Positions 1 to 14,336 of a stretch of DNA of 14,465 nt are shown one piece after another. The stretch comes from Anaerolineae bacterium (GTDB lineage: Bacteria; Chloroflexota; Anaerolineae; B4-G1): positions 1 to 14,465 of the forward strand of contig DAOTUB010000062.1 in NCBI GenBank assembly GCA_034437455.1, written 5' to 3'. Position numbers and translations under genes: made by a program. Every line of letters starts with the position of its first letter. Within the stretch, counting starts at the first letter, position 1. The notes beneath the pieces are model-generated. The model worked only from the letters and a program-made list of their open reading frames with translations. It was not told the origin of the DNA and did not search any database.

Positions 1-453
1 CATGTGTTATACCCGGCGTGGGCATACTTTGTGACGCTCTTGAGCAGCCCAAATGCCTACCATCGCGCTGCCGCCGTCCGTCTCATCGCAGACTTGACCC
101 GGATCGACGATGCGCAACAATTTGAGACGATCTTTGAACGCTACTTTGACTTGCTGGATGACGAGAAAGTGATGGTCGCCCGTTACCTCGCGCAGAACGC
201 CTGGAAGATCGCAGAGGCCAAGCCATATCTGCGAGAAAAGATCACAGCACGCTTGTTGGACATAGACGCCACCCATCATCCACCGAGCCGTAAAGCCCTG
301 GTCAAGGCCGACGCCATTGCGTCCTTTAAAGTGTTCTTTCAAGAATCCAAACGCAAAGAGGGCATACGCGCCTTTGTCGAAGCGCAATTGGAGAGTGAAA
401 GCCCCAAGGCCCGCCAGGCAGCCAGTGCCTTTTTGAGACGCTACGGGCAATAA
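1..453 (+). CDS. 3' end of a gene that starts upstream of the window; hypothetical protein C-terminal fragment (about 150 aa visible). Mostly helical-looking, no recognisable catalytic motif.
   Basis: Frame 1 is open from nt 1 to TAA at 451-453. The translation looks protein-like (balanced composition), whereas the overlapping minus-strand ORF 7-552 is Gly/Cys/Leu-rich junk. No start codon context is visible because the gene begins upstream. Confidence 0.5.
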   Translation, partial: HVLYPAWAYFVTLLSSPNAYHRAAAVRLIADLTRIDDAQQFETIFERYFDLLDDEKVMVARYLAQNAWKIAEAKPYLREKITARLLDIDATHHPPSRKALVKADAIASFKVFFQESKRKEGIRAFVEAQLESESPKARQAASAFLRRYGQ

Positions 454-690: not shown

Positions 691-3018
691 TTGAAAATGA
701 CCTTACACGAGATCTCTATTGAGCAATCACATAGCCATTACACTATCCGGCAAACGGTTTTAGCCTGCGTGGAGCAAGTTTTCCCTTTTGGGGCTTTTGT
801 TCGCTTGCCAGATGGCACCCAGGGCTATGTACGCAAGCGCGAGCTGACCCTGGCCGGCAACCAAGACCCCCGCGAGGTCGTCTCTCCCGGACAAGAAATC
901 AAAGCTGTGGTAGTCGCCTTGCCCCAGGCTGAACAAAGCCTCGAGTTGAGCGTGCGTCAGGCCGAACCCGATCCCTGGGAAACATTCGGACAGTCCCAAG
1001 TCCGTGACACTGTCACAGCCACGGTCAAAAAGCTCTACAACAGAGGCGCCCTCGTCCAAGTCACTCCCGGCGTAGACGGGTTCATCCCATTGGCCGAGTT
1101 GGCACCCTGGCCGGTGGAAAAGCCGGATGACTTGCTCTGGGTCGGTGACCGGGTAGAAGCGATGATTACTCATCTTGACCGGCAGGCCAGGCGGATGTGG
1201 CTCAGCATCCGGCAACAAGTAAAGCACACAGCACGCGTAAGAGAGGTGCTGTCGTTTCTCAGCAAAAAGGAAGATCCGGAAGAGACTTTACCCCAGGAGG
1301 AACCCGTCACCCTTGAGAAAGACCAAGGCATAGACCCAGCCATCGCCCAGCAAGTGGGACGCATTTTGGTAGTGGATGACCATGACAAAGTACGGGAACC
1401 GCTGGCGGCATGGCTGCATCGGATGGGCTTTGCGACGGAACAAGCTAAATCCCCCCACCAGGCGCTCGACTGCTGCCTTGAAAACGCTTACGGGCTGGCA
1501 TTGATTGACCTGAACCTTTCAGGCCAAGACGGACTGGAACTTGTTCAGGCCTTGAAAGACTTGAACCCGGATATCCCAATAGCCATCATGAGCACTCCCG
1601 AATGGATTGCCCAACGGTTGGAAGCGCTGTCCACACTGCGTCCGGTTCATATATTCGCCAAGCCACTAGACCTGGACGAGATCCGCGAGCTGTTGGTCCA
1701 ATTGGCTCGCGGTGAAATATTCCCTCCCACCGCTTTCACTAAGCCAGAGGTCCAAAAATCACCTGCGGCCTCCTCACACATGGCTAAAATGATGCGCAGC
1801 GACCTATCGTTAGCAAAACGTTTCCAAGCTGGCCTACAGGAACTAGTCCAGCAAGGCCAGGCAGATCAGGGCATCCTTTTTCAGCTCGCTCCCGACTCGC
1901 AGCAAATTTCTATCGTCGCGCAGGCCGGGAACATGGCATTAAACCAGGCGGCTATGTACAACCTGCGCCAAAGCCCGGTCAAAGACGTGATCTATGAGCA
2001 AGATGAGGTATTTGAGACAGACGTCTCGCGTCACGCTCAAGGTCAATTCAGCAAGCTATTAGCGCTGCTGCCCTTTGAATCCTGCCTGGGCGTCCCCATC
2101 CCGGCCGCCGGTCAGGTACAACATGCCCTGTTTCTGTTTCATCGTGAGCCAGAGATCTTTTCCCGCTATCGCTTGCGAGATGCACGCGCCATGGCCGTGC
2201 TGTTTAGCGCAGCGCTAGAAAGTCAAGCATTGGAAAAACGTATCCAGTCTGTCAGTCCATTTTTGCTGAGCGGGCAACTAGCGGCCGGCTTTGGCCACGA
2301 AGTATATAACAAGATGTCCGGGTTAGAGCTACAGATTTGCAACCTACAATCCGACTGCCAAACTGTGCAGCGAGATTTGACAGGGTGCCAACCGGTAGAC
2401 GACGGCGCCCTCGACGCACTGCTCAAAGCCACGGGCCGGTTGTTAGAATCCGCACTAGACCTCAAAGGCACCTTGCAACTTTTTCGCGAACTCGTTCAGG
2501 CTGAGCAGCAAGACCAAGTGGACGTGAACGCAGTGACACAACGCGCCATTCAACTGCTGCGTACCACCGCAGGCCAGCACCAGGTCATCATAGAAGAAAA
2601 ACTGGTTCCAGACTTGCCCCCGGTCAGAGGCAGTGCCGTCCGCCTGCAACAGGTTTTCGTCAACCTGATGCTAAACGCGATCCAACAAACCGCCCTAAAA
2701 ATGGTAAAATGGCCCGAAGGCCAGGGGGTACTGAGCATCGCGACGACTTGGGAGCCAGCGGCCGAGTGTCCCGTGCAAGTGCGGTTTATGGATAACGGGC
2801 CCGGGATACACCGCCACTTGTGGGACAAGATTTTTACCCTGGGCTTTTCGACCCGACAGGGCGGAACAGGCCTGGGTTTGTTCATCGCCAAGAGCCTGAT
2901 CGAGTCCTTGGGCGGCAAGGTCTGCGTAGAACAAAGCATGATCCCTGAGGGGAGCATTTTTCGGGTGGAACTGCCAGCGGCCAAGCATTGTCAACGAGGA
3001 GCGAGCAGCGATGCATGA
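691..3018 (+). CDS. Hybrid sensor histidine kinase with tandem N-terminal S1 RNA-binding domains: S1, S1, REC, GAF, HisKA, HATPase_c (775 aa). The ORF track starts at TTG 691; an in-frame ATG at 697 is an alternative start.
   Basis: Coordinates are aa (nt) throughout.
- S1 folds, two copies: residues about 15-92 (FGAFVRLPDGTQGYVRKRELT ... SLELSVRQ) and about 101-176 (GALVQVTPGVDGFIPLAELA ... MWLSIRQ).
- REC, aa 224-340 (nt 1360-1710): RILVVDDHD, LALIDLNLSG, IMST, FAKP.
- GAF, aa about 365-515 (nt 1783-2235).
- HisKA H-box: LAAGFGHEVYNKMSGL (His536, nt 2296-2298).
- HATPase: N box VFVNLMLNAIQQT, G1 DNGPGI, G2 GGTGLGLFIAKSL.
- A TATAAT hexamer lies at 658-663 upstream.
- No strong Shine-Dalgarno sequence before 691/697. 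Confidence 0.85.
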   Translation: MKMTLHEISIEQSHSHYTIRQTVLACVEQVFPFGAFVRLPDGTQGYVRKRELTLAGNQDPREVVSPGQEIKAVVVALPQAEQSLELSVRQAEPDPWETFGQSQVRDTVTATVKKLYNRGALVQVTPGVDGFIPLAELAPWPVEKPDDLLWVGDRVEAMITHLDRQARRMWLSIRQQVKHTARVREVLSFLSKKEDPEETLPQEEPVTLEKDQGIDPAIAQQVGRILVVDDHDKVREPLAAWLHRMGFATEQAKSPHQALDCCLENAYGLALIDLNLSGQDGLELVQALKDLNPDIPIAIMSTPEWIAQRLEALSTLRPVHIFAKPLDLDEIRELLVQLARGEIFPPTAFTKPEVQKSPAASSHMAKMMRSDLSLAKRFQAGLQELVQQGQADQGILFQLAPDSQQISIVAQAGNMALNQAAMYNLRQSPVKDVIYEQDEVFETDVSRHAQGQFSKLLALLPFESCLGVPIPAAGQVQHALFLFHREPEIFSRYRLRDARAMAVLFSAALESQALEKRIQSVSPFLLSGQLAAGFGHEVYNKMSGLELQICNLQSDCQTVQRDLTGCQPVDDGALDALLKATGRLLESALDLKGTLQLFRELVQAEQQDQVDVNAVTQRAIQLLRTTAGQHQVIIEEKLVPDLPPVRGSAVRLQQVFVNLMLNAIQQTALKMVKWPEGQGVLSIATTWEPAAECPVQVRFMDNGPGIHRHLWDKIFTLGFSTRQGGTGLGLFIAKSLIESLGGKVCVEQSMIPEGSIFRVELPAAKHCQRGASSDA
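733..1218 (+). other. Tandem S1 (OB-fold) RNA-binding domain region of the 691-3018 kinase.
   Basis: Two roughly 75-aa repeats matching the S1 pattern G-x-V-x-G-x-V ... GAFV ... G-x-V-(H/R) ... S-E-L ... G-x-x-(I/V)-x-(V/A)-x-V-(L/I) ... (L/I)-S-(V/I)-R-Q. Seen in translation only; no HMM was run. Confidence 0.7.
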
Positions 3019-6000
3019 AGAACCGCTAAGGGTAGTACTGATAGACGACGAGCAAAGCCTGCGCGAGCCGTTAGCCAAGCGCCTACGAGACAAGTACAAC
3101 TATCACGTCGATGCTGCCGCCGATGCCCGTCAAGCCTGGCAGTTGATTACCGAGGCCAGTTCACCTTACGATGTGGCTCTAATCGACGATATGTTGACAC
3201 CTCAGGCCCAAGTTGAACCCCAACTGATTGGCATCGACCTTACACGCCGGATCAGAGAAGACCATCCCGAGACAGAATGCATCCTCTTCACCGGGTGGGG
3301 TATGGAGCGGGCGCTAGAGGGACTACGCGCCGGCGCGTACCGCTACCTGTCCAAGCCGATCAACATGGAAGAACTAGGCATGACCATCCGTATGGCAGCG
3401 GAGCATCGCCGGCTCAAACAGCAACTGGAAACCACCCGCCAGGAGAAAAAATGGCTACAGACGTTCCTGGAAATCGGTCGGGCAACGACTTCTGTCCTGG
3501 AATTGGATGAGGTTTTGGAACATGTCCATGCACAAATCAGTCTCCTTATGGATGCTTCTTGTATGGACGTCGTCCTATATGACAGTGCCAATCAAACGCT
3601 CAAGTTCGAGTTGGGCTATGACAAAGGGGTCAAGGAGACGAGATGGGAGCGCCCATTCACCGCAGACCATGGATTGACCGATTTGGTGATTCAACATCGT
3701 CACCCGCTGCTGATCAGAGATTATAAAAAAGAAACCCCTCCCGTTCTCGCCTATCAGCGTGGCGAAATGAGCCGTTCGTGGCTGGGCGTCCCCCTGATCG
3801 CGCGCGACCAGGTCATCGGGGCCATCACGGTGCAAAGCTATACACCGCACAAATTCGACGAGACGGATCAGCAAATCCTGGATACGGTGGCCAACCACAT
3901 AGCCAGCGCCATCCAAAACGCTCAATTATTCTCTGAACTGGTCAAGACCCAAAAGTGGCGCGAAGCGCTCATCAACAACACCCTAGATGCGGTGATCGCT
4001 ATTGACCAGGGCAAACGAGTGACGGTCTTTAACCAGCGCGCTGAACAGATGTTTGGCTGGCATGCGCGAGAAATCATAGGGCAGCCGGTCACCCAATTAC
4101 ATATGAGTACGGGAAAGGCCAAAGAGATCTTTGACACGGTAAACCATGAAGGAGAGATCTCGAGTCTGGAAGTAGAACTAAGACATCGGGACGGTACCGC
4201 TATCCCGGCGCGGCTTTCAGCAACGCGGATCAAAGACAGCAACGGTCATCCCATCGGGCAAGCGCGGTTTATGCGTGATTTACGCCAGGTCAACCTGTTG
4301 GAAGAACGGCTGCGGGCTTTGATCCGAGGAAATCGGGTCATTAACAGCAGTCTGGAATTAGAGCAAGTACTCAACCAGGTCATCCAAGCTGCACTAGAAG
4401 CTTTCCCGATGGCACAAGGGGGTGTTATTCACCTGTATGATAAACACAGCAGTGTATTGCGCCTCCAAGCAAATACTTTCAGTTACAGCCCTTCAGCCAT
4501 CGAGGCGTTGCACATGAAGCCCGGTGAAGGCATTGCCGGTTGGGTCTATATGCGCGGACAGCCCGTGGTGATCCCAGATGCACACCAGGATGAGCGTTAC
4601 AAGCTGATCGCCCATCCGGAAATCGCTCCCCACAAACCTATGGTGTGCGTACCCCTCAAAGTGAGAGATCAAGTACTTGGAACACTATCGCTCAACACAG
4701 TAGAGACCGGCAACACCTTTCAAGCCGAGGACCTGGGATTACTTTCCACATTTGCCGATCAGGCGGCTGTCGCCATCAACAACGCCCGCTTTTTTAGGGA
4801 ACAGGACCGCCGCCAGCAACTCTTGACCAGGCTGAACGAAGCGTCACGGCACATCCGTGCGGAAAAACCAATCCCCAAGCTCTTGCACGAAATCGTTCGC
4901 CAGGCGGTCCGGTTGGTCGACTGTTCGGCAGGCGCGCTGTTCCTCAACCGCCCCCACGTCAAGGAACTAGAATTACAAGTGACCTATGAACTACCCACCG
5001 AATTGGTTGGCAGTCATCTATCGCACACCGAAGGCTTGGTCGGTTTAGTTGCACGAACTGGCAAGTCCAAATTCATACGCAATTACTCAACATGGTCAAG
5101 ACCCACAGTGCTCTTTGAACCCTATAACTTTGAAAGCGTCGCTGGAATCCCTCTCAAACAAGCCGGCGAGGTACAAGCGGTCTTGCTCGTCGCTGACCAG
5201 ACCGGCACTCCGGCGCATCTGCAGCCGTCCGACCTGGAGATACTGGAGCGCCTGGCGGCACAGGCCGCTATCGAACTCGAGACCTCTCTATTGATGAGCC
5301 GAGAACAACGCGTGGCCAGTCAATTAGGTATCCTGCACCAAATCAGCGATTACATACAAGCAGCCAGAGACCTGGACAAAGTGTTGCACGTCGTCCTGAC
5401 GGGCGTGACGGCGGGTTATGGTCTGGGCTTTAATCGTGCGGCGCTGTTGCTGCTAGATGAGCGCCAGGAACACCTGGTGGGACGCATGGGCATCGGCCAA
5501 CTGGAGGAACCAGCAGCGCAACAAGACTGGGAGCAACACCACAAGCACAAATTAGAGGATTTTCAAAGATACCTCGAACTGTTGGAAAAGGACGCCCTGC
5601 CGTTGACGCCGGTGGGAGAGAAAATCCGCGACATCAGGCTGCCCCTCACGCCTCACGTCTGTGGCATCCTCATGCGGGTGATGCGCCAGCAACAGCACCT
5701 ACTCCTGACTCTAGAGGAATTAAACGAACTACCAGGCAGCTTTGTCAAGGTTTTCGACCCGGCACAGCCAATCATCGTTGCGCCCCTGCTGGCGCGCGGA
5801 GCGGTCATCGGACTGCTCATCGCCGATAACAAGTTCACTGCGTCGCCCATCACGCCGGAGGACACAGAGGCACTGCTGACCTTTGCCAACACGGCCGCGA
5901 TCGCCATCAGCAACGCACAACTTTACCACGAAACTCGGGTCGCACGAGAGCGGTTGCGCAGCTTTTACGAGGCCAGCAACGCCCTGGTCTCGTCCCAGGA

Positions 6001-9000
6001 TCCCGAACAAGTGCTCCGAAAAATCGTCGAACAAGCTCACCAGACGGCCAGCTCGGCCTGGACCGGCCTGATCTTGATCGACAAGGCTGGACAGGCACAA
6101 AAACTGGTCACGATGGGAATAGACGAGTACGGCGGATTTACCGTTCGGCCCGACGGGATCTCGATGCAGGCTATGTGCAGCGACCAAGCCCAAATCATCG
6201 AGGATGTCCGGGCAGAACGCGACCGCGTCAACCCAGGTTTGCTGCGCGACGGCATTGGCGCCGCTTTGTGTTTGCCCCTCTCCCTGCAAGAAAACCACTT
6301 TGGTGTGATGTGGCTGCACTATGCCATGCCGCGCCATTTCCCCATCAGTGAGGTTGAAGCCTTGCAGCTCTACGTCAATCAGGCGGCCATCGCTTACGAT
6401 GCTGCCCGACGTATGCAGCAGCTAGAAAACATGCGACGAGCGGCCGAGGCACTGGCTGGCGCTTCTAGCATAGCGGCAGTGCTCAAGCAAATAGCCGAAA
6501 GCGCCAGGATTGTCCTGAATGCCGACTCGTCCGTCGTCTGGCCGTACGATCACGAGAGACGCACCTTTTTGCCCGCCGAGCTAGAGACGGCCGGCATTTC
6601 ACCCGAGCTAGTCGAACAATTTCGAGATGTCGAACCTCAACCAGAAGGTACAACGGAAACAGTTTTGCATTTAGGGTGGATTGGCGTCTCGGACGTCGAC
6701 CAGGAGGTGCACCCCTTCCTGGGTCCCCCTGACAGAGGCTTGCGTGGGGCGATCACCGTCCAATCCTTCCAAGGGATCGCTTTACGGGCGGGCGACGAAA
6801 TTCTGGGCGTGCTGTACGCAGACTATGAAAGGCCGCGTAGCTTTAATAAAGCGGACCGCCGGCTGGCTGAAACCTTTGCCACTCACGCTTCCCTGGCCCT
6901 CAAGAAAGCCAGACTGCTGGACCAAATCAGCCAAGTGAGAGACACAGCCAAAGCCGTGGCCGAAGTCAGCATCCTGGAGAAACTAGCAAGTACGCTAGAC
7001 TCGATTACGCGGGGGACTTGCAAAACGCTCAACTGCGATGCCGTCACCCTCTACACTTTTGATCAGCGCAAAGACCAAATCGGGTTTCCCCCAACGGTGA
7101 TAGGGATACGAGACACGAAACAAGTCCTCGAGTTAGGCTTTGTGGCAAGGAACTCGGTTGTCGGCAAAATACTAGACTTGGGTCAAGTGCATGTGGCCGA
7201 AGACGCTCCTTCCGATCCCATCATGGGCGGGGTGTTTGTCAAACGTGAGGGTATCAAATCATCGCTCGGCGTCCCACTCCAGGTCGGCGACCAAAAAGTA
7301 GGGGTGATGTTTGTGAACTATCGCACCCCGCACCGTTTTACCGGTGAAGAACTGACCAACATCAAGCTCTTTGCGACCCAGGCTGCCATCGCCATCCGCA
7401 ACGCTCGGCTCATAGACGATATTTTCCACCGCAACATTCAGCTCCAGACCGTCACCGAGGTCTCCAAGTCAACCAGCACCCTTCTCGCCCCCGAAGCATT
7501 GATGCACCAGGCAGTCAACCTGATTCGAGAGCGCTTTGAACTCTACTATGTGGGTCTATTTTTAACCGATGAAAGCAGCAAGCATGCAGTATTGCGAGCC
7601 GGCACCGGTGACGCGGGTCAAAGAATGCTCACAGATGGCTACAAGCTAGAGATCGATGATCACTCGATGATTGGATGGAGCATCAACAACGCCCAACCAC
7701 GTATCGCGCTCGACATCGACAAAGAAAAAATCCGCTTCAACAACCCTCACCTGCCCGAGACTCACTCCGAGCTGGCGCTGCCGCTGATCAGCCGTGGTCG
7801 CTGCATCGGTGCCCTGACGGTGCAAAGCACCAGGCCAGATGCCTTTTCCTCTGAAGACGTCGCCGTGCTGCAAACGATGGCCGATCAATTGGCCATCGCC
7901 ATCGAGAACGCTCAGCTATATCGAGAAGAAACAGAACAGCTCCAGGAATCCCAGGCCCTGCAAAAAATAGCGATCTCTCTCGCCGGTAGCCTTGAGCTTG
8001 GTGAAGTGTTGAACCACGTGATGCAGGCAGCGATGGGCTTTACCGAAACAGATTCTGGCACCATCTTGTTGTGGAACGCAGAACAAGAAAATTTCACCTA
8101 CACACTCACCACAACGGGGCCAGAACGAACCCTACAGGTATATACCAGCCAAACCCGCGAGGAAGGCATAGCCCGGTCAATCATTGAGGAGCAAAAGACG
8201 GTCATCATTTCCAACGCCCAGGATGACCCCCGGATCAATCCCATTGCGATTGAAAAAGGCCGACGAGCGCTCATCGGCACTCCACTGGTGAGCCGCGAAG
8301 AAGTAATCGGCGTACTCTATGTAAGCAGCTTGGAACCCCGCCAGTTCCTTGCACAACAAGTGAGCTTGTTAAAAAGCCTGGCTAGCCAGGCTGCAGTGGC
8401 CATTGAAAGAGCGCGACAACACAAAGAGTTAAAAGAAACCAAAAGCGTCATCGGTGCCAGGACAGCACTGGCATGGATGGGGATGACCAGTAGCGCCTGG
8501 CGTCACACCATCGAAAAGCATTCCCTGACCATACGGGAGCAAGCACAACTCCTGCGCCAAGACTGGGAAAAAGTGATGCCGCATTCTCAAAAGCTCAAAG
8601 CCCAGGACCGCATCGCGATGATTGAGCGATTGACGACGCAAATCCTGCAAAAACCGATCACACCACCCCTTTCCAGCGAATCCGGTGTTCAGTTGGTATC
8701 GCTGACCACGCTGGTCAGCGAGCGTGCTAGACAATTATGGCAAAATGACCCCTACAAAAAGACCAAGCTCCAACTGGACTTGCAACTACCGGAGGAAGCG
8801 GCGGTCCGCACTAGCCCTGAATGGTTGCGACGGGCTTTTGATATCTTGGTGGACAATGCGGTGAATGCCGTTACAGACTGTCCTGTGCGCGAGATTACTA
8901 TCGGCACCAAAGCTTACAGCTCGGGAGTCAAGGTTTTCGTGTCGGACACTGGACCGGGCATCCCAGACGAGATGCAAGACAAAATCGGCCTTGAGGCGAT

Positions 9001-9172
9001 AGAGAAACCCAAAGATGCCAAAGGGCTCGGTATGGGGCTACTAATGGCCCACGTTATTGTACAAACTTATGGGGGGAAAATTTGGCTTGATTGCACCGGA
9101 CCCGAGGGCACGACCATGTCCATCTGGCTCCCCTTGGAAGCCCGACCCTCAGAGGGAGAGCAGACCTCATGA
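3011..9172 (+). CDS. Giant multi-sensor hybrid histidine kinase (2053 aa): N-terminal REC, GAF1, PAS, GAF2 through GAF9, divergent HisKA, HATPase_c. ATG 3011 overlaps the upstream stop (TGA 3016-3018) by 8 nt; SD GAGGAG at 2996-3001.
   Basis: - REC: VVLIDDEQ, VALIDDML, ILFTGW, LSKP.
- PAS: TLDAVIAIDQGKRVTVFNQRAEQMFGWHAREIIGQP at about nt 3950-4290.
- Nine GAF-like units, each closing with the helix motif (F/L)A-x-QAA(I/V)AI-x-NA(R/Q)L(Y/F/I). The nine closing motifs are:
  1. ANHIASAIQNAQLF
  2. ADQAAVAINNARFF
  3. AAQAAIELETSLL
  4. ANTAAIAISNAQLY
  5. NQAAIAYDAARR
  6. ATHASLALKKARLL
  7. ATQAAIAIRNARLI
  8. ADQLAIAIENAQLY
  9. ASQAAVAIERARQ
- Divergent H-box: LAWMGMTSSAWRHTIEKH, which aligns to LAxxGxxAxxxAHEIxNPL.
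- HATPase: N box FDILVDNAVNAV, G1 DTGPGI, G2 KGLGMGLLMAH. Confidence 0.9.
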   Translation: MHEEPLRVVLIDDEQSLREPLAKRLRDKYNYHVDAAADARQAWQLITEASSPYDVALIDDMLTPQAQVEPQLIGIDLTRRIREDHPETECILFTGWGMERALEGLRAGAYRYLSKPINMEELGMTIRMAAEHRRLKQQLETTRQEKKWLQTFLEIGRATTSVLELDEVLEHVHAQISLLMDASCMDVVLYDSANQTLKFELGYDKGVKETRWERPFTADHGLTDLVIQHRHPLLIRDYKKETPPVLAYQRGEMSRSWLGVPLIARDQVIGAITVQSYTPHKFDETDQQILDTVANHIASAIQNAQLFSELVKTQKWREALINNTLDAVIAIDQGKRVTVFNQRAEQMFGWHAREIIGQPVTQLHMSTGKAKEIFDTVNHEGEISSLEVELRHRDGTAIPARLSATRIKDSNGHPIGQARFMRDLRQVNLLEERLRALIRGNRVINSSLELEQVLNQVIQAALEAFPMAQGGVIHLYDKHSSVLRLQANTFSYSPSAIEALHMKPGEGIAGWVYMRGQPVVIPDAHQDERYKLIAHPEIAPHKPMVCVPLKVRDQVLGTLSLNTVETGNTFQAEDLGLLSTFADQAAVAINNARFFREQDRRQQLLTRLNEASRHIRAEKPIPKLLHEIVRQAVRLVDCSAGALFLNRPHVKELELQVTYELPTELVGSHLSHTEGLVGLVARTGKSKFIRNYSTWSRPTVLFEPYNFESVAGIPLKQAGEVQAVLLVADQTGTPAHLQPSDLEILERLAAQAAIELETSLLMSREQRVASQLGILHQISDYIQAARDLDKVLHVVLTGVTAGYGLGFNRAALLLLDERQEHLVGRMGIGQLEEPAAQQDWEQHHKHKLEDFQRYLELLEKDALPLTPVGEKIRDIRLPLTPHVCGILMRVMRQQQHLLLTLEELNELPGSFVKVFDPAQPIIVAPLLARGAVIGLLIADNKFTASPITPEDTEALLTFANTAAIAISNAQLYHETRVARERLRSFYEASNALVSSQDPEQVLRKIVEQAHQTASSAWTGLILIDKAGQAQKLVTMGIDEYGGFTVRPDGISMQAMCSDQAQIIEDVRAERDRVNPGLLRDGIGAALCLPLSLQENHFGVMWLHYAMPRHFPISEVEALQLYVNQAAIAYDAARRMQQLENMRRAAEALAGASSIAAVLKQIAESARIVLNADSSVVWPYDHERRTFLPAELETAGISPELVEQFRDVEPQPEGTTETVLHLGWIGVSDVDQEVHPFLGPPDRGLRGAITVQSFQGIALRAGDEILGVLYADYERPRSFNKADRRLAETFATHASLALKKARLLDQISQVRDTAKAVAEVSILEKLASTLDSITRGTCKTLNCDAVTLYTFDQRKDQIGFPPTVIGIRDTKQVLELGFVARNSVVGKILDLGQVHVAEDAPSDPIMGGVFVKREGIKSSLGVPLQVGDQKVGVMFVNYRTPHRFTGEELTNIKLFATQAAIAIRNARLIDDIFHRNIQLQTVTEVSKSTSTLLAPEALMHQAVNLIRERFELYYVGLFLTDESSKHAVLRAGTGDAGQRMLTDGYKLEIDDHSMIGWSINNAQPRIALDIDKEKIRFNNPHLPETHSELALPLISRGRCIGALTVQSTRPDAFSSEDVAVLQTMADQLAIAIENAQLYREETEQLQESQALQKIAISLAGSLELGEVLNHVMQAAMGFTETDSGTILLWNAEQENFTYTLTTTGPERTLQVYTSQTREEGIARSIIEEQKTVIISNAQDDPRINPIAIEKGRRALIGTPLVSREEVIGVLYVSSLEPRQFLAQQVSLLKSLASQAAVAIERARQHKELKETKSVIGARTALAWMGMTSSAWRHTIEKHSLTIREQAQLLRQDWEKVMPHSQKLKAQDRIAMIERLTTQILQKPITPPLSSESGVQLVSLTTLVSERARQLWQNDPYKKTKLQLDLQLPEEAAVRTSPEWLRRAFDILVDNAVNAVTDCPVREITIGTKAYSSGVKVFVSDTGPGIPDEMQDKIGLEAIEKPKDAKGLGMGLLMAHVIVQTYGGKIWLDCTGPEGTTMSIWLPLEARPSEGEQTS

Positions 9173-9558
9173 AGCACTTCTTATTGGTCGGTAACCCATC
9201 AGGCTCGCAGTGGTCCTCGATCTTGCGTCGGGCACTGTCTACTTTGGGTGAGCTGCGCATCGCGTCTGAAGCAAACGCCCCACGGGAAATCTCGAGAAAA
9301 AATTACGATGCGATCATTGTAGACGCCGGCGCCGTTCAAGACGTTAACGCTCTGACATCTCTTCTGCGTCAAGACCACCCTCAGGCACGCGTGATCGTTG
9401 CCACCGCGTCTCCCACCTGGAGACGCGCGCGCGAGGCACTCCGTGCCGGCGCCGCCGACTATATCCGCAAATCGCTGGATGAAAAAGAACTCCTGGTCGC
9501 TATCCAGGAAGCGTTATTAGTTCCCCTTCCTGCCTTATCCGAGTCGAAACGGAGGTAA
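9169..9558 (+). CDS. Stand-alone receiver-like protein (129 aa from ATG 9169); atypical or pseudo-receiver. The ATG overlaps the stop of the giant kinase (ATGA at 9169-9172); GGGAGAG lies 12-18 nt upstream. The ORF track's earlier start (9091) would overlap the kinase by 82 nt and seems less likely.
   Basis: CheY-like layout. The conserved acidic pair is replaced in LLVGNPS (DD to GN). The putative phospho-Asp is kept in AIIVDAG, a T/S position in VATAS, and a Lys in IRKS. Seen directly in translation. Confidence 0.6.
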   Translation: MKHFLLVGNPSGSQWSSILRRALSTLGELRIASEANAPREISRKNYDAIIVDAGAVQDVNALTSLLRQDHPQARVIVATASPTWRRAREALRAGAADYIRKSLDEKELLVAIQEALLVPLPALSESKRR

Positions 9559-9560
9559 AT

Positions 9561-11528
9561 ATGGCCCAGTTCACTGTGCTCTTTGTTGATAACGATCAAG
9601 ATTTTCTCAATACCCGCACCGAATTTCTAGAAAATGCCGGGTATCGCGTGATCAAAGCCGCCAGTCTTGATCAGGCCCGAAAGTTCCTAAGTGACGCCCT
9701 GGTCCATCTGGCCATCCTGGATATCCGTATAGTCGACGACGATGATGAAAAGGACATCAGCGGCCTGGTTCTGGCCAAAGAGCCGGCCTACAGCCTCATC
9801 CCCAAAATTATCCTCACGAATTTTCCGAGCTATCAAGATGTGCGGGAGGTTCTAAAACCTGCCTTACAGGGCCTCCCTCCTGCCGTGGACTTTTTATCCA
9901 AAAAGGACGGCCCGACAATCATGATTCAGGCCGTCCACGAGGCCTTTGACAAATATGTACGCCTCAATCAGGACTTGCGCATTGACTGGGGCCCACGGGA
10001 GTCTCTGAATCCTCTCCATCTGGCGCGCCTGCTAAACCCTGACGCGTCTAACGAGGTTTTGGTACAACGCGCCGATGAACTAGAGGACCTCCTGCGCCGC
10101 GTATTCTGTGATTATCAACAGGTCAGAATTGGCCGGTTGCTGTGGCATATCGAACAGCGCCTCTGCGTACCGGTCTTGGCGCAATCTACCCAGCAAGCGA
10201 CCGACGCCCGGATCCTGGTGTGCGGAGAACGGGGACCTATGGAGCAAGAACTGGCGTGTATGCAAGAGCTGGTACCAGAACGCGGGGCAACGTTGGTCAA
10301 CACGACCGATACCGTGCATTTCTGTGCAGCAATCTATGCCCTGGCCGACGCCCAGTTGGAAAGCATACAAACCTTGAGAGAGTTGTTTCAAAGCGGCAAG
10401 AAACGCCCTCTCACAACCGCCCTGGATCGCCTGTTAAAAGACACGCTGGCAGACTGGCACCAACGCGGACAAGCTCTGCAGGAATCGGGCCACTTGATCG
10501 AAGTTTATCGCCGCTGGGCAGAGCTGGACCAGGACGGTACGTCTCGGTCAAAGGTCAAGCGCCACGTAGAGAAACTGGTCCAGATATCCCGCGCGTTAAG
10601 CGCAGTGGAAATTCAAAGCCTTGACCAAGGCATCACATTTCAGTTCCCTCAACAAGCACCGTTGAACTATCCTGACCCCGTGGCTATCCTGTACACCCCA
10701 TTGGAATCCTATTCCGGGCCAATCGTGTGTCGCGTCTCGCCCGGCCGCCTGACGCCTGACAACGTGCTCATAGATGCCCAGCAACGGACCTGGCTAACCG
10801 ACCTGGCTCGCGCCGGACAGGCCCCCCAATGGTGGGATTTCGTGTGCCTGGAGGCGCTGTTTCGCTTTGATCTCAGTCAGGCCCCAGACCTGCTGGCCTG
10901 GCAAGAGTTCGAAGAATGCTTGATTTGCCCTAACGTGCTGCACGATAATCTACGGGAACAGGACGTGGTGCAAGATCTGCGCATGAGCGTGACGCTCATT
11001 GAGCAAATCCGCAGACAAGCCGGCAGTGAAGCCGGACCCGACCCCCGACCTTACTATGCAGGCCTGCTGGCATGGGTCGTCGGCGCCATCGCCCAACACG
11101 ATCCAAGCAGGCTGTATACGCCGGCCGAGCAAATGCGCAACGCACACCTCTTGATGGCCGCCGCTATGCTCGCGAACCGGTTAAGCGAGTCAACAGCCAA
11201 AGTGAACCCTGGTGGGTCGCTGCGCTTGGATGCAGAAGGCACTGTCTGGATGGGAGAACGCCGGGTCGATGAACTGGGAGGACAAGAGCTTGATTTGTTG
11301 CGCCTGCTCTATGAACAACCGGGACAACTCGTCAAGCGCGAGCGCATCATCGAATCTGTATTCGGCGAACCTTATGCCGAGGGCGACAAACACCAGGCAG
11401 GCCGCATTAACTCCCTGATAAGACGTCTGCGCGTCAAGATTGAACCCAATTCCCGCCGTCCGCGCTACCTACTGACCGTCAAGGGCAAAGGTTATCGCTT
11501 GCAGGTAAAGAACAAACCTCAAGAGTAG
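9561..11528 (+). CDS. 655-aa response regulator: N-terminal REC, then a central protein-kinase-like (Hanks/APH-type) domain that is probably a pseudokinase, then a C-terminal OmpR/PhoB-type winged-helix DNA-binding domain. SD GGAGG 7 nt upstream of ATG 9561.
   Basis: - REC: LFVDNDQD, LAILDIR, IILTNF, VLKP.
- Kinase-like catalytic loop: SPGRLTPDNVLID, aa 394-405 (nt about 10740-10775). It aligns to HRDLKPENILID / HGDLHPGNVLV with the catalytic D replaced by R.
- DFG-like motif: WLTDLARAG, aa 411-419.
- APE-like plus DxWSxG-like region: APQWWDFVCLEA.
- wHTH: LLRLLYEQPGQLVKRERIIESVFG ... RINSLIRRLRVKIE ... YLLTVKGKGYRL. Confidence 0.85.
   Translation: MAQFTVLFVDNDQDFLNTRTEFLENAGYRVIKAASLDQARKFLSDALVHLAILDIRIVDDDDEKDISGLVLAKEPAYSLIPKIILTNFPSYQDVREVLKPALQGLPPAVDFLSKKDGPTIMIQAVHEAFDKYVRLNQDLRIDWGPRESLNPLHLARLLNPDASNEVLVQRADELEDLLRRVFCDYQQVRIGRLLWHIEQRLCVPVLAQSTQQATDARILVCGERGPMEQELACMQELVPERGATLVNTTDTVHFCAAIYALADAQLESIQTLRELFQSGKKRPLTTALDRLLKDTLADWHQRGQALQESGHLIEVYRRWAELDQDGTSRSKVKRHVEKLVQISRALSAVEIQSLDQGITFQFPQQAPLNYPDPVAILYTPLESYSGPIVCRVSPGRLTPDNVLIDAQQRTWLTDLARAGQAPQWWDFVCLEALFRFDLSQAPDLLAWQEFEECLICPNVLHDNLREQDVVQDLRMSVTLIEQIRRQAGSEAGPDPRPYYAGLLAWVVGAIAQHDPSRLYTPAEQMRNAHLLMAAAMLANRLSESTAKVNPGGSLRLDAEGTVWMGERRVDELGGQELDLLRLLYEQPGQLVKRERIIESVFGEPYAEGDKHQAGRINSLIRRLRVKIEPNSRRPRYLLTVKGKGYRLQVKNKPQE
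10100..11130 (+). other. Kinase-like (probable pseudokinase) insert domain of the 9561-11528 regulator.
   Basis: Approximate span inferred from the positions of the catalytic-loop and DFG-like motifs. The N-lobe assignment is tentative because no clear Gly-rich loop or VAIK lysine is seen. Confidence 0.45.
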
Positions 11529-11791: not shown

Positions 11792-13111
11792 ATGGAAAGT
11801 TACCAAGACGGACATGCGGAACAAGCGAAAGCGCGTCCCATAAAGTATTGGCCGCCCGATGGTTCCAAATTCAATGGCCTGGTAGGTCCTGCTAAACAAA
11901 TGCGGATCCTGCCCCTGGTCCCCAAACTCCACATCGTCCCAGCAGGCACGTGCGCCGTCCTTACATTGCCCGGAGGGAAGCGCACAATCTTTCAAGAAGG
12001 TATGCACGTGCTCAAGGATCTCCCCGCAGGCGTATGCTTGCTGCGCTACGTCGATATGCGGGAACATCGCACCCCCATATCACTCACCGAGGCCTGGTGT
12101 AAAGATGGGTGGCGCGGCAAGCTTGCGCTACAGATTCACTGGCGCGTCAATGACGCGGCACACCTCGTGGATGTCGCCGACCCTGTCGGGAACCTCACCA
12201 CCGCCGCCAAGGCGAGTGTGCGCGCTGTCATCGAGACGACGCCCCACGACAAGCTGATCGGTGGGAGCGACGAGCAAGCCATAGCGACCGATTCCCTGGC
12301 GGCGGCCGTGACCGCTAAACTGCAAGACAATCCGGCCACCAAGGGTATCAAAATCCTGCGCGTCCTGATCACCGAACGCCAAGGTGACACACGCTGCATC
12401 GAGATCGCGCAAGAAAAAACGGTCGAGCACAAGCGGCAGGAACTGGTCTTGCTGCAGGAGGAAACGGAGCGCAAGCGCAAAGAAGAGGAAAGAAAAGTGC
12501 GCATCCGGGAAGCAGAGATCGAGGCCGAAACGGAAGGCCGGCTCGCTGCTATCAAGTGGCAGCAAGTGCAGTTAGAACAGGCAGCGGAACTGAACAAACA
12601 ACATCACGAACGGGCGCTAAAAATCATCGAGGCCTACGCTCAGGTGCTGAGCAAGGCAGCAGAACTCGGACAACTGGAGGCACTCGGTGTCTCCTCGCGT
12701 CGCCGGCCCGAACTCGCCACCGGTGGCTTGGAGAGTATGCTGAACCAAGGGCTGAGCAACTTGCAAAGTGCGCTTCAGGCGCCAACCATCAGCCCGCTTC
12801 CCACGTATGCCAGCTCTTACAATGAAAAAGCCGCCCTGGCCGCGCGCCTCGCGGCCGAGGCTGCCGAGGTGGCCGAACTGGAAGGGGTCAAGCAGTGCTA
12901 CGTAGGCGTGTGCAAGAAAGAAAAGGGTAACACGGTTTTCGTCTGGCTGGATGGCCGACGGTTGAGCATCTGCTGCCCCTTGGACTACCCTCAAACCGCT
13001 CCCAAAGTGCAATGGGCTGACAACGGCCACCACAAAGTGCCGCTCAATTGGTCTGAAGGGATGTCGCTCTCGCACATCGTAGCGGACATCCGGGCAACCG
13101 CCCAAGCCTGA
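11792..13111 (+). CDS. SPFH/band-7 (stomatin/flotillin-like) domain protein, 439 aa. No N-terminal transmembrane helix. Followed by a long ER/K-rich charged helix and a Cys-containing C-terminal tail. SD GAGAGGAG 8-15 nt upstream of the ATG.
   Basis: - The N-terminal 45 aa are hydrophilic.
- SPFH core: HIVPAGTCAVLTLPGGKRTIFQEGMHVL ... LRYVDMREHRTPIS ... CKDGW matches IVPxGxxGVVxxFGK ... PGLHF ... VDLRE ... TKDN.
- Band-7 signature-like ATKGIKILRVLITE.
- Charged helix: QEKTVEHKRQELVLLQEETERKRKEEERKVRIREAEIEAETE.
- Tail: CYVGVCKKEKGNTVFVWLDGRRLSICCPLDYP. Confidence 0.75.
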   Translation: MESYQDGHAEQAKARPIKYWPPDGSKFNGLVGPAKQMRILPLVPKLHIVPAGTCAVLTLPGGKRTIFQEGMHVLKDLPAGVCLLRYVDMREHRTPISLTEAWCKDGWRGKLALQIHWRVNDAAHLVDVADPVGNLTTAAKASVRAVIETTPHDKLIGGSDEQAIATDSLAAAVTAKLQDNPATKGIKILRVLITERQGDTRCIEIAQEKTVEHKRQELVLLQEETERKRKEEERKVRIREAEIEAETEGRLAAIKWQQVQLEQAAELNKQHHERALKIIEAYAQVLSKAAELGQLEALGVSSRRRPELATGGLESMLNQGLSNLQSALQAPTISPLPTYASSYNEKAALAARLAAEAAEVAELEGVKQCYVGVCKKEKGNTVFVWLDGRRLSICCPLDYPQTAPKVQWADNGHHKVPLNWSEGMSLSHIVADIRATAQA

Positions 13112-13139: not shown

Positions 13140-14336
13140 ATGCAAGAGACACCTTTCATACATACGGCCTACCGTCAAGAGACTCTAGTCGAGTCCGGCT
13201 TGTTCAATCACCTAGGAGTAGCCCACGAGCAGTTGCCCGGCTATCACGCCTTGTTTGCTGCTCGGGTCCTGGTGACGCCCTATGAAATCTTGGCCGAAAG
13301 AAAGTGGGGCATGGTAGAAAGAGATCTGCTAGACGAGGTTCTGGACAGACAGAGGCGCTTTATCGCCAGCCTACACTACATAGATCCTCATTCCACCAGC
13401 CCTGACCCTAGCCTCAAGACGGCAGCGCTGCGCTATGTCGCTCGACCGGAGACGCGGCAAATAGACACGATACTGGTGGGCAAAGTCTTTGCCCACCAGA
13501 TCGACCAGGCTCGTGATATGGCTCTCGCCTGGTACAAGGAAATCGAAGCACTGTTTTCCCGTGACTACAAGCTGCAACCGCTCAAGTCAGAAGAGGAATT
13601 CATAACCCAATCGGGGCAACAACTGCTCAAAAGCATCTCTGAGCCCACACAGACAGAAGTCAGACGCTACGAGATGTTCTTGCCCAGGTCGACCGAACGA
13701 GAAGTAAGGGAAACCCACTATGTCGTGTATCCTTTTATGTGGCATCGAAACGGCATGGATCAAGTATGGCAAGTTATGGCGTCAATGTCAGCACCTGTCA
13801 TACTCAGCGTTATGCTGCGTCCGGCTTATTTGTACGAAGCGGAAGAGCTGCATTTGGCGCGATTTTACGAGGCCACAAAAAATCTCAAGTCCGAACGCGT
13901 CGCCGACCACGTGCTAGGGGAACAAGCCGCGCAGATATACGCCGGATACCTCCGGACCTGGCGCCAACCTTTCCTGGTGCGCGCGCAGGTCACCGCACCG
14001 CAAGGGACCCACCGCGCGCTGGCACGCGCGGTGGGATGTGCACTGTCATACGGCGCGCCGGCCAGTGGCGATGACAGACATAGCCCGTTCCCTGGTTACG
14101 AGTTGATCACACCCACCAAAGAGGACCGCAAGACCGCACGCGACAATGTATGCTGGCTCGAGATGCAAGACTGGGGGACTGACCAAGCTGCACCAGCCTA
14201 TCGTAGGTTTCGATACCTGACCGACTTGAAAGGCGCCCATTGCTTGTTTCGTCTCCCGTTCGTGCCCAAGGCCGGCTTGCCTGGCGCACAATTTGACAAA
14301 TCGTCAACGCCGGACGCAGACTCGAACAATCGATAG
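13140..14336 (+). CDS. Hypothetical protein, 398 aa, no recognisable domain; apparently soluble. Starts 28 nt after the SPFH-like gene's stop with SD GAGG 6 nt upstream, so it is probably co-transcribed.
   Basis: Long ORF with protein-like composition, tightly linked on the same strand. I see no catalytic or structural motif I can name, and no hydrophobic transmembrane segment. Confidence 0.55.
   Translation: MQETPFIHTAYRQETLVESGLFNHLGVAHEQLPGYHALFAARVLVTPYEILAERKWGMVERDLLDEVLDRQRRFIASLHYIDPHSTSPDPSLKTAALRYVARPETRQIDTILVGKVFAHQIDQARDMALAWYKEIEALFSRDYKLQPLKSEEEFITQSGQQLLKSISEPTQTEVRRYEMFLPRSTEREVRETHYVVYPFMWHRNGMDQVWQVMASMSAPVILSVMLRPAYLYEAEELHLARFYEATKNLKSERVADHVLGEQAAQIYAGYLRTWRQPFLVRAQVTAPQGTHRALARAVGCALSYGAPASGDDRHSPFPGYELITPTKEDRKTARDNVCWLEMQDWGTDQAAPAYRRFRYLTDLKGAHCLFRLPFVPKAGLPGAQFDKSSTPDADSNNR

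Follow-up and report, generated by a model that had tools for sequence, protein, structure and literature searches.

Response regulators are among the best-catalogued signalling proteins of bacteria. Few pseudokinases are known from bacteria, and their understanding is poor. In regulators of the OmpR/PhoB type a receiver (REC) domain is joined through a short linker to a winged helix-turn-helix (wHTH) domain within ~230 residues, while regulators of the NtrC type have a central AAA+ domain between REC and a Fis-type DNA-binding domain. Kinase folds that have lost activity and are coupled to a wHTH have been noted in the VMAP ternary systems, where an inactive S/T/Y-kinase domain and a wHTH are found on vWA proteins (Kaur, Burroughs, Iyer, Aravind 2020, PMC7159879). 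Here we describe a gene for a response regulator of 655 residues, located in a stretch of 14,465 nucleotides (hereafter the window) from an Anaerolineae bacterium (assembly GCA_034437455.1, contig DAOTUB010000062.1), for which the ENA record of the contig gives a microbial-mat metagenome as the source. The protein is a three-module response regulator, comprising a REC domain with the phospho-acceptor machinery, a middle domain of the APH/choline-kinase (ChoK) type, and an OmpR-type wHTH. A first description of the locus, made from the DNA letters alone (the initial annotation), had proposed that the middle domain is a pseudokinase inserted between the receiver and the winged helix. The features of the gene are as follows.

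9561..11528, + strand: gene of the REC / kinase-like / wHTH regulator, 655 residues plus stop (open reading frame call, Pfam, homologues)
9561..9950, + strand: receiver domain, residues 1-130 (Pfam; PDB profile match to the REC of RpaA)
9720-9722, + strand: acceptor aspartate D54 (alignments)
9951..10115, + strand: linker or N-terminal extension of the kinase-like domain, residues 131-185, with the motif ELEDLFRRLF (one strand and two helices in the modelled secondary structure)
10116..10346, + strand: kinase-like N-lobe, residues 186-262, with beta1-beta3, alphaC and beta4-5 (models, column counts)
10347..11195, + strand: kinase-like C-lobe and APH-type helical subdomain, residues 263-545
10737..10763, + strand: degenerate catalytic loop SPGRLTPDN, residues 393-401, with R396 at the site of the catalytic Asp and N401 at that of the metal-binding Asn
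10791..10817, + strand: DFG equivalent WLTDLARAG, residues 411-419, with D414 kept
10821-10856, + strand: APQWWDFVCLEA, residues 421-432, a motif quoted in the initial annotation
11271..11501, + strand: OmpR/PhoB-type wHTH (Trans_reg_C), residues 571-647 (Pfam, 57.1 bits)

The reading frame begins with ATG, 7 nucleotides downstream of a GGAGG ribosome-binding site. Pfam recognizes Trans_reg_C (PF00486) at residues 571-647 well above the cut-off of 26.2 bits, and Response_reg at residues 6-116 with 24.4 bits, under the cut-off of 30.2; the latter family is listed for most of the homologues in their precomputed Pfam annotation. According to these boundaries ~415 residues lie between REC and wHTH, which agrees with the long insert of about 400 residues that had been reported. 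The wHTH gives PDB profile matches to the DNA-binding domains of RpaA (E 9.4e-22), WalR and RegX3, while the NCBIfam matches cover only the C-terminal domains of RpaB, VanR and PhoB, and no NCBIfam equivalog exceeds 56 bits (cut-offs of at least 270). A full-length AlphaFold2 model (predicted local distance difference test score, pLDDT, 87.8; predicted template modelling score, pTM, 0.77) contains all three modules, with residues 546-551 as the sole disordered linker.

Comparison with the orthodox OmpR/PhoB regulators reveals both shared and divergent features. The N-terminal receiver with its acceptor Asp, Thr and Lys, the adjoining histidine kinase genes, and a C-terminal wHTH that matches Trans_reg_C and the solved domains of RpaA, WalR, RegX3 and KdpE are held in common, whereas the short linker is replaced by a folded domain of 415 residues, the length is 655 instead of ~230 residues, and the REC domain is divergent (D-N in place of the acidic pair, a D-x-R motif, an acidic insert). 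We conclude that the protein is likely to function in the manner of OmpR-type response regulators, having both of the defining domains in a layout that is not the two-domain one. From the NtrC-type regulators it differs in that its centre is a kinase fold and not AAA+, and that its DNA-binding domain is of the OmpR and not the Fis type.

Conservation was followed in two sets of homologues, a close set of 55 proteins (40-81% identity) and a distant set of 59 cluster representatives (29-47% identity). Both alignments show D54 and T86 of the receiver without exception; D10, N11 and K114 are likewise invariant in the close alignment (A1) and at least 90% conserved in the distant one (A4). The oddities of this domain include N11 at the place of the second metal-binding acid, the D-x-R motif, the acidic insert DDDDEKD after the acceptor, and an alpha4-beta5 region that is longer and modelled with lower confidence. 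Judged by these residues, the receiver is probably phosphorylatable, possibly with atypical metal chemistry. The linker that follows it is a candidate for coupling REC to the N-lobe of the kinase-like domain; at an overall identity of ~30%, at least 90% of the distant homologues still keep its residues N136, L139, E173, L177, L181 and F182.

In the models, residues 131-545 are folded with confidence into a domain of their own, and the AlphaFold2 model of residues 131-550 calculated with 55 homologues (pLDDT 90.8, pTM 0.91) confirms the kinase fold that had been read from motifs. The elements follow the order typical for kinases, i.e. beta1-beta3, alphaC, beta4-5, helices, a strand at 388-393, the loop SPGRLTPDN, two short strands and WLTD414, and together they make up a bilobal kinase fold with an APH-type helical subdomain. 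The original label, "Hanks/APH-like", can be narrowed accordingly: the domain belongs to the APH/ChoK branch of kinases, and a Hanks-type kinase (PF00069) was rejected since the APH-type matches score far higher. Run against the PDB sequences, the whole-family profile returned relatives of REC and wHTH only and none for the middle domain, and the closest solved structures are all active small-molecule kinases. Compared to the APH (PF01636), choline and MTR kinases, the regulator lacks the catalytic Asp of HxDxxxxN and the beta3 Lys, its identity to them is ~9-15%, and it has an extra N-terminal extension and C-terminal helices in addition to the fusion with REC and wHTH.

The sole Pfam family that matches the middle domains with E <0.01 is TCAD9 (number 9 of the ternary complex associated domains, PF19974), detected in 14 of 20 members with a best E of 3.5e-14 and catalogued in KINtaro as the protein-kinase-like family PKLF000039. 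In the regulator itself the match covers residues 368-487 and only the profile positions 275-400 of 429; it scores 37.1 bits in the full-length protein (E 2.8e-9) and 38.9 bits in the isolated domain, against a cut-off of 40 that is exceeded in the homologues P0244 (60.7 bits), P0281 (42.2 bits) and P0168 (41.0 bits). P0244 shows an additional weak APH match over the catalytic-loop region. The middle domain appears homologous to TCAD9 and, in structure, to the APH/ChoK kinases, with the difference that the regulator remains at 37-39 bits for a cut-off of 40 and that its partners are two-component proteins and not vWA, MoxR and VMAP. The kinase-wHTH modules of the VMAP systems (PMC7159879) resemble the regulator in that a disrupted kinase fold, proposed to be non-enzymatic, is coupled to a C-terminal wHTH; they differ in being related to actinobacterial Hanks-type kinases, in residing on vWA effectors, and in having no receiver.

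The motifs SPGRLTPDN, WLTDLARAG and APQWWDFVCLEA are found at the sites initially given for them. The spacing x-G-R396-x4-N401-x12-D414 is that of the APH enzymes, H-G-D-x4-N-x12-D, and aligning the family profile with a profile of three APH sequences by hhalign returned the same register with a low overall probability (16.5%), which we used as support for the register and not as proof. In this alignment P394-G395-R396 correspond to H188-G189-D190 of NPTII, N401 to N195 and D414 to D208, while the beta3 lysine of NPTII (K50) has no counterpart; hhalign of the profile against the single NPTII sequence gave nothing usable (probability 0.6%). With spacing and alignment in agreement, the similarity of the motifs is unlikely to be a matter of chance, and by this register the exchange of the catalytic Asp for Arg is real in the regulator.

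The homologues reveal what is conserved at these positions. Position 394 is P in 54 of the close homologues, and in the distant set P29 H14; G395 is invariant in the former and present in 54 of the latter. At position 396 the close set has R17 T13 Q8 K5 W2 C2 and others, and never an acidic residue (0/55), and the distant set has R14 T7 G7 Q4 A4 D3 E3 and others. Position 401 is N in 52 close homologues, and N24 T20 S9 in the distant ones, while D414 is retained in 53 and 54 and the alphaC glutamate E230 in 46 and 47 members of the respective sets. The beta3 strand, which in the regulator ends in ...ILVCG, contains no lysine, which in the distant set is missing from the whole strand; its positions 221-222 are occupied by C51 and G52 (close) and C48 and G57 (distant). 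Homologues with His at the HxD position have lost the Asp, and those with D or E at 396 are without the His. Arg at 396 is therefore one replacement among many and the missing acid the conserved trait, so the Arg, whose conservation the initial annotation had left to be surveyed, is not a conserved residue, while the absence of the acid extends to all close homologues and to all but six (3 D and 3 E) of the 59 distant ones.

We took as a pseudokinase a kinase fold without at least one of three residues, namely the beta3 Lys, the catalytic Asp and the DFG Asp. As an acid is almost never found at 396 and the beta3 Lys is lacking as well, the middle domain is predicted to be a pseudokinase by the usual residue criteria, two of the three residues being missing. 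The loss of the Lys adds to the substitution on which the original proposal was based. That proposal had also named three findings that would speak against it, namely the absence of any kinase-fold hit, homologues with a canonical HRD/HGD aspartate at this position, and a chance similarity of the motifs; all three were examined and none was encountered.

The same residue counts bear on a different explanation, according to which the domain is an atypical kinase that acts on a small molecule or protein and whose activity the receiver switches, the wHTH tethering the enzyme to DNA or autoregulating it. The beta3 Lys could then be compensated, for example, by R192 or R200 of the beta1-beta2 region, as in WNK kinases, and D400 could act as the base. 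The conservation of D414 (54/59), N401 (52/55 in the close set) and E230 (47/59) would fit an enzyme, position 400 is D or E in 41/59, the basic residues near the phosphate-binding loop are kept (R192 in 46/59; R200 in 39/59, plus K in 3), and the nearest solved structures are, as mentioned, all active. On the other hand, the residues found at the position of the base are hypervariable (R/T/Q/K/G/A/W/C) and none of the substitutes is conserved, half of the wider family has T or S in place of N401, the Lys is absent from beta3, and the mosaic decay of the loop, in which His is found without Asp and D/E without His, resembles a relaxed catalytic constraint. We therefore regard an active enzyme as quite improbable.

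The segment from the catalytic loop to the DFG equivalent is the best-conserved stretch of the domain, with 62.6% mean identity to the query compared to 45-47% for the lobes, and the conserved positions of the cleft comprise G395, L403, W411, D414-F415, G222 and E230. Because the motifs of the cleft are the best-conserved part of the domain, we propose that the cleft still binds something. An alternative that dispenses with any ligand is a scaffold. The domain would then serve for oligomerisation or as a spacer, much like the central domains found in large transcription regulators, and would fix how two wHTH domains are arranged or recruit protein partners, leaving REC phosphorylation as the sole input. 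Such a scaffold would agree with the loss of both the ATP-anchoring Lys and the catalytic Asp, with the faster divergence of the kinase-like domain (28% identity at large distance, versus 48% for REC and 37% for the wHTH), with the non-enzymatic roles proposed for inactive kinase domains coupled to wHTH (PMC7159879), and with the presence of a small conserved atypical REC encoded next to the regulator, which could be the binding partner. Against it stands the strong conservation of motifs in the cleft, among them a metal-binding Asp for which a spacer would have no use, and we consider a ligand-free scaffold unlikely, although deserving attention.

The explanation that we favour, and hold to be fairly probable, is that of a phospho-controlled regulator in which a pseudokinase module gates the wHTH. 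For its mechanism, i.e. phospho-Asp control together with a ligand-binding or scaffold pseudokinase, we infer the following steps. The histidine kinases of the operon would phosphorylate D54 of the receiver, and the conformational change would travel through the conserved linker 131-185 into the N-lobe of the pseudokinase. The latter, not catalyzing phosphotransfer, would act as a rigid regulatory module that controls the dimerisation or exposure of the wHTH, and this control would set the binding to DNA repeats and hence transcription. The cleft would still bind a nucleotide, a metabolite or a partner, for instance the small REC, and thereby provide a second input besides phosphorylation. Taken further, the proteins might constitute a widespread and hitherto uncharacterized class of two-input transcription factors, in which REC phosphorylation and occupancy of the degenerate cleft jointly decide on DNA binding, a suggestion that we make tentatively. 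The ligand in that case could be a nucleotide, a second messenger, a metabolite or the small atypical receiver encoded upstream, and the pseudokinase would be an allosteric sensor on a branch from GAF-rich kinases that also feed a protein with REC and two transmembrane segments (REC-2TM).

Several points weigh against the gating pseudokinase. The residue equivalences come from motif spacing, secondary structure and the hhalign comparison at 16.5%, and not from a residue-level superposition, and binding of a nucleotide or other ligand by the cleft is purely inferred. Pseudokinases that have lost the beta3 Lys often no longer bind nucleotides, and about half of the distant homologues carry T or S in place of N401; therefore, the conservation of the cleft may reflect only the structural core of the fold. 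In the receiver, N11 replaces the second metal-binding acid and the Pfam score is under the cut-off, so the chemistry of phosphorylation may be atypical. Finally, the full-length model (pTM 0.77) was read only for its domain content.

Genomic neighborhood analysis places the regulator in a row of co-directional genes, all on the + strand of the window.

1..453, + strand: partial open reading frame at the left edge of the window, with weak HEAT-repeat matches (E ~2e-4, below the cut-off)
691..3018, + strand: hybrid histidine kinase 1 (HK1), the first gene of the operon, S1-S1-REC-GAF-HATPase_c, 775 residues (Pfam)
3011..9172, + strand: hybrid histidine kinase 2 (HK2), REC-PAS-9xGAF-HATPase_c, 2053 residues (Pfam)
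9169..9558, + strand: small atypical single-domain receiver, 129 residues (Pfam Response_reg, 36 bits)
11792..13111, + strand: Band7/SPFH-like protein with a long charged coiled region, 439 residues (Pfam)
13140..14336, + strand: protein of 398 residues with no family match (Pfam)

HK2 is the presumed phosphodonor of the regulator. It is unusually large and cytoplasmic, carrying REC at the N-terminus in addition to one PAS and nine GAF domains, and its C-terminal 253 residues match the kinase cores of ZraS, HK853 and FixL. No match to the HisKA/DHp families of Pfam was found in HK1 or HK2; the stretch AWRHTIEKH ahead of the ATPase domain of HK2 may contain the phospho-His site. HK1 is found at the same position only in a subset of the related loci (L004, L007, L016, L018 and L020), and its two N-terminal S1 RNA-binding domains are an odd combination for a sensor. 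The ATG of the small receiver gene overlaps the stop codon of HK2, and an identical gene for 129 residues is called on the ENA contig. This protein retains the acceptor Asp, Ser/Thr and Lys, and has "LLVGN" in place of the N-terminal acidic pair, where all of its ~20 orthologs show "FLL[IV]G". Possible roles are those of a pseudo-receiver, of a phosphate sink or of a partner to which the pseudokinase domain binds.

The small receiver is located upstream of the regulator in 22 related loci, and wherever the contig extends far enough upstream, an ortholog of it and a multi-GAF histidine kinase, often with PAS or REC domains, come before the regulator. In many of them an additional gene, encoding REC fused to the two-transmembrane module CyanoTRADDas_TM, is inserted between the small receiver and the regulator; it is absent from the window. 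Examples are the following.

L001, 9135-9974: REC + CyanoTRADDas_TM gene
L002, 9072-9959: REC + CyanoTRADDas_TM gene
L004, 9172-10008: REC + CyanoTRADDas_TM gene
L028, 4355-5635: REC + CyanoTRADDas_TM gene

CyanoTRADDas_TM was first defined as a module of TRADD-N conflict systems. The receiver linked to it is the closest paralog of the REC of the regulator (63% identity in L004), which suggests that one kinase feeds a membrane effector and a transcription factor alike. The genes on the 3' side of the regulator vary between loci, and in several loci terminator-like hairpins follow it immediately; these hairpins are the sole shared element among conserved DNA motifs sought 3' of the regulator, while the terminator search in the window itself detected none. 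The variable downstream genes and the hairpins indicate that the regulator closes the operon, and we conclude that it stands at the end of a conserved operon composed of one or more multi-GAF hybrid histidine kinases, the small atypical REC, sometimes the REC-2TM protein, and the regulator. The Band7 and 398-residue genes were rejected as conserved partners, as this pair is found downstream of the regulator elsewhere only in L017, a Caldilineae bin (4136-6483); on the ENA contig (L026, 8906-10648) a DDE transposase gene follows the pair. The partial frame at the left edge is not kept beside the operon in other loci. Rfam searches gave no matches.

The neighborhood also bears on the meaning of the name TCAD9, which together with the origin of this family implies a component of a nucleoside triphosphate-dependent conflict (defence) system of the vWA-MoxR-VMAP type. 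The REC + CyanoTRADDas_TM gene of many related operons, with its domain defined in conflict systems, fits such an assignment, whereas the conserved partners of the regulator are histidine kinases and receivers. The genes called within +/-10 kb, both in the window and in the 8 related loci inspected, include no vWA, MoxR or VMAP gene, and PADLOC returned no matches. The context in which TCAD9 was named thus does not apply here, and a defence system, which we rejected for want of the vWA, MoxR and VMAP neighbours, is hardly credible.

A word-indexed search identified >120 clusters of full length, at 39-81% identity, that share the three Pfam domains of the regulator, and a query comprising the middle domain alone recovered the same proteins. 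In an exhaustive hmmsearch with the middle-domain profile, 1.84 billion representatives yielded 1633 matches at E<=1e-3, 973 at <=1e-10 and 409 at <=1e-30. Among the best 150 of the 1633 nearly all are ~650 residues long with the domain at ~130-545, and the sampled outliers retain REC and/or Trans_reg_C. A search for kinase-like + wHTH proteins devoid of REC returned two candidates, one at a contig end and the other (L028) with REC called separately. In the latter (5645-7629) a receiver gene of 120 residues overlaps the start of the kinase-like + wHTH gene, which, from the sequence, may be either a sequencing frameshift or a natural split form of the regulator.

Among GTDB species representatives, all recovered loci (19/19) are from metagenome-assembled genomes, mostly of Anaerolineae, Caldilineae, Thermoflexales or Chloroflexia, with single bins labelled Acidobacteriaceae, Planctomycetota and Proteobacteria. 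L016 and L018 are two paralogous cassettes of kinase, small REC and regulator in one such genome (SRP178699_co1_610), which suggests that the system has been duplicated and diversified within genomes.

The source annotation of the homologues reads only "DNA-binding response regulator", and our literature search found no paper on the REC-pseudokinase-wHTH architecture; in PMC7159879 we found no mention of TCAD9 or of a fusion to REC. The architecture had initially not been recognized as a described family, which holds for the REC-linked form, uncharacterized so far, and not for its components, as the domain already bears the name TCAD9 and the coupling of inactive kinases to wHTH has been noted (PMC7159879). 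In the literature searched, the REC-linked form, its operon and the size of the family are absent, while the parts are already catalogued.

The fusion of REC, pseudokinase and wHTH extends over at least several hundred sequence clusters with strictly conserved architecture and operon. Its members are all uncultured, being known from metagenome-assembled genomes mostly of Chloroflexota, so work on them must be heterologous. If the middle domain is a scaffold only, the result still amounts to a useful correction of annotation and extends the TCAD9 family beyond conflict systems. If it is true that the dead cleft senses a ligand or partner, the regulator would offer a compact genetic model of pseudokinase allostery, with DNA binding as an easily measured read-out, and would represent a new logic of output control in two-component signalling.

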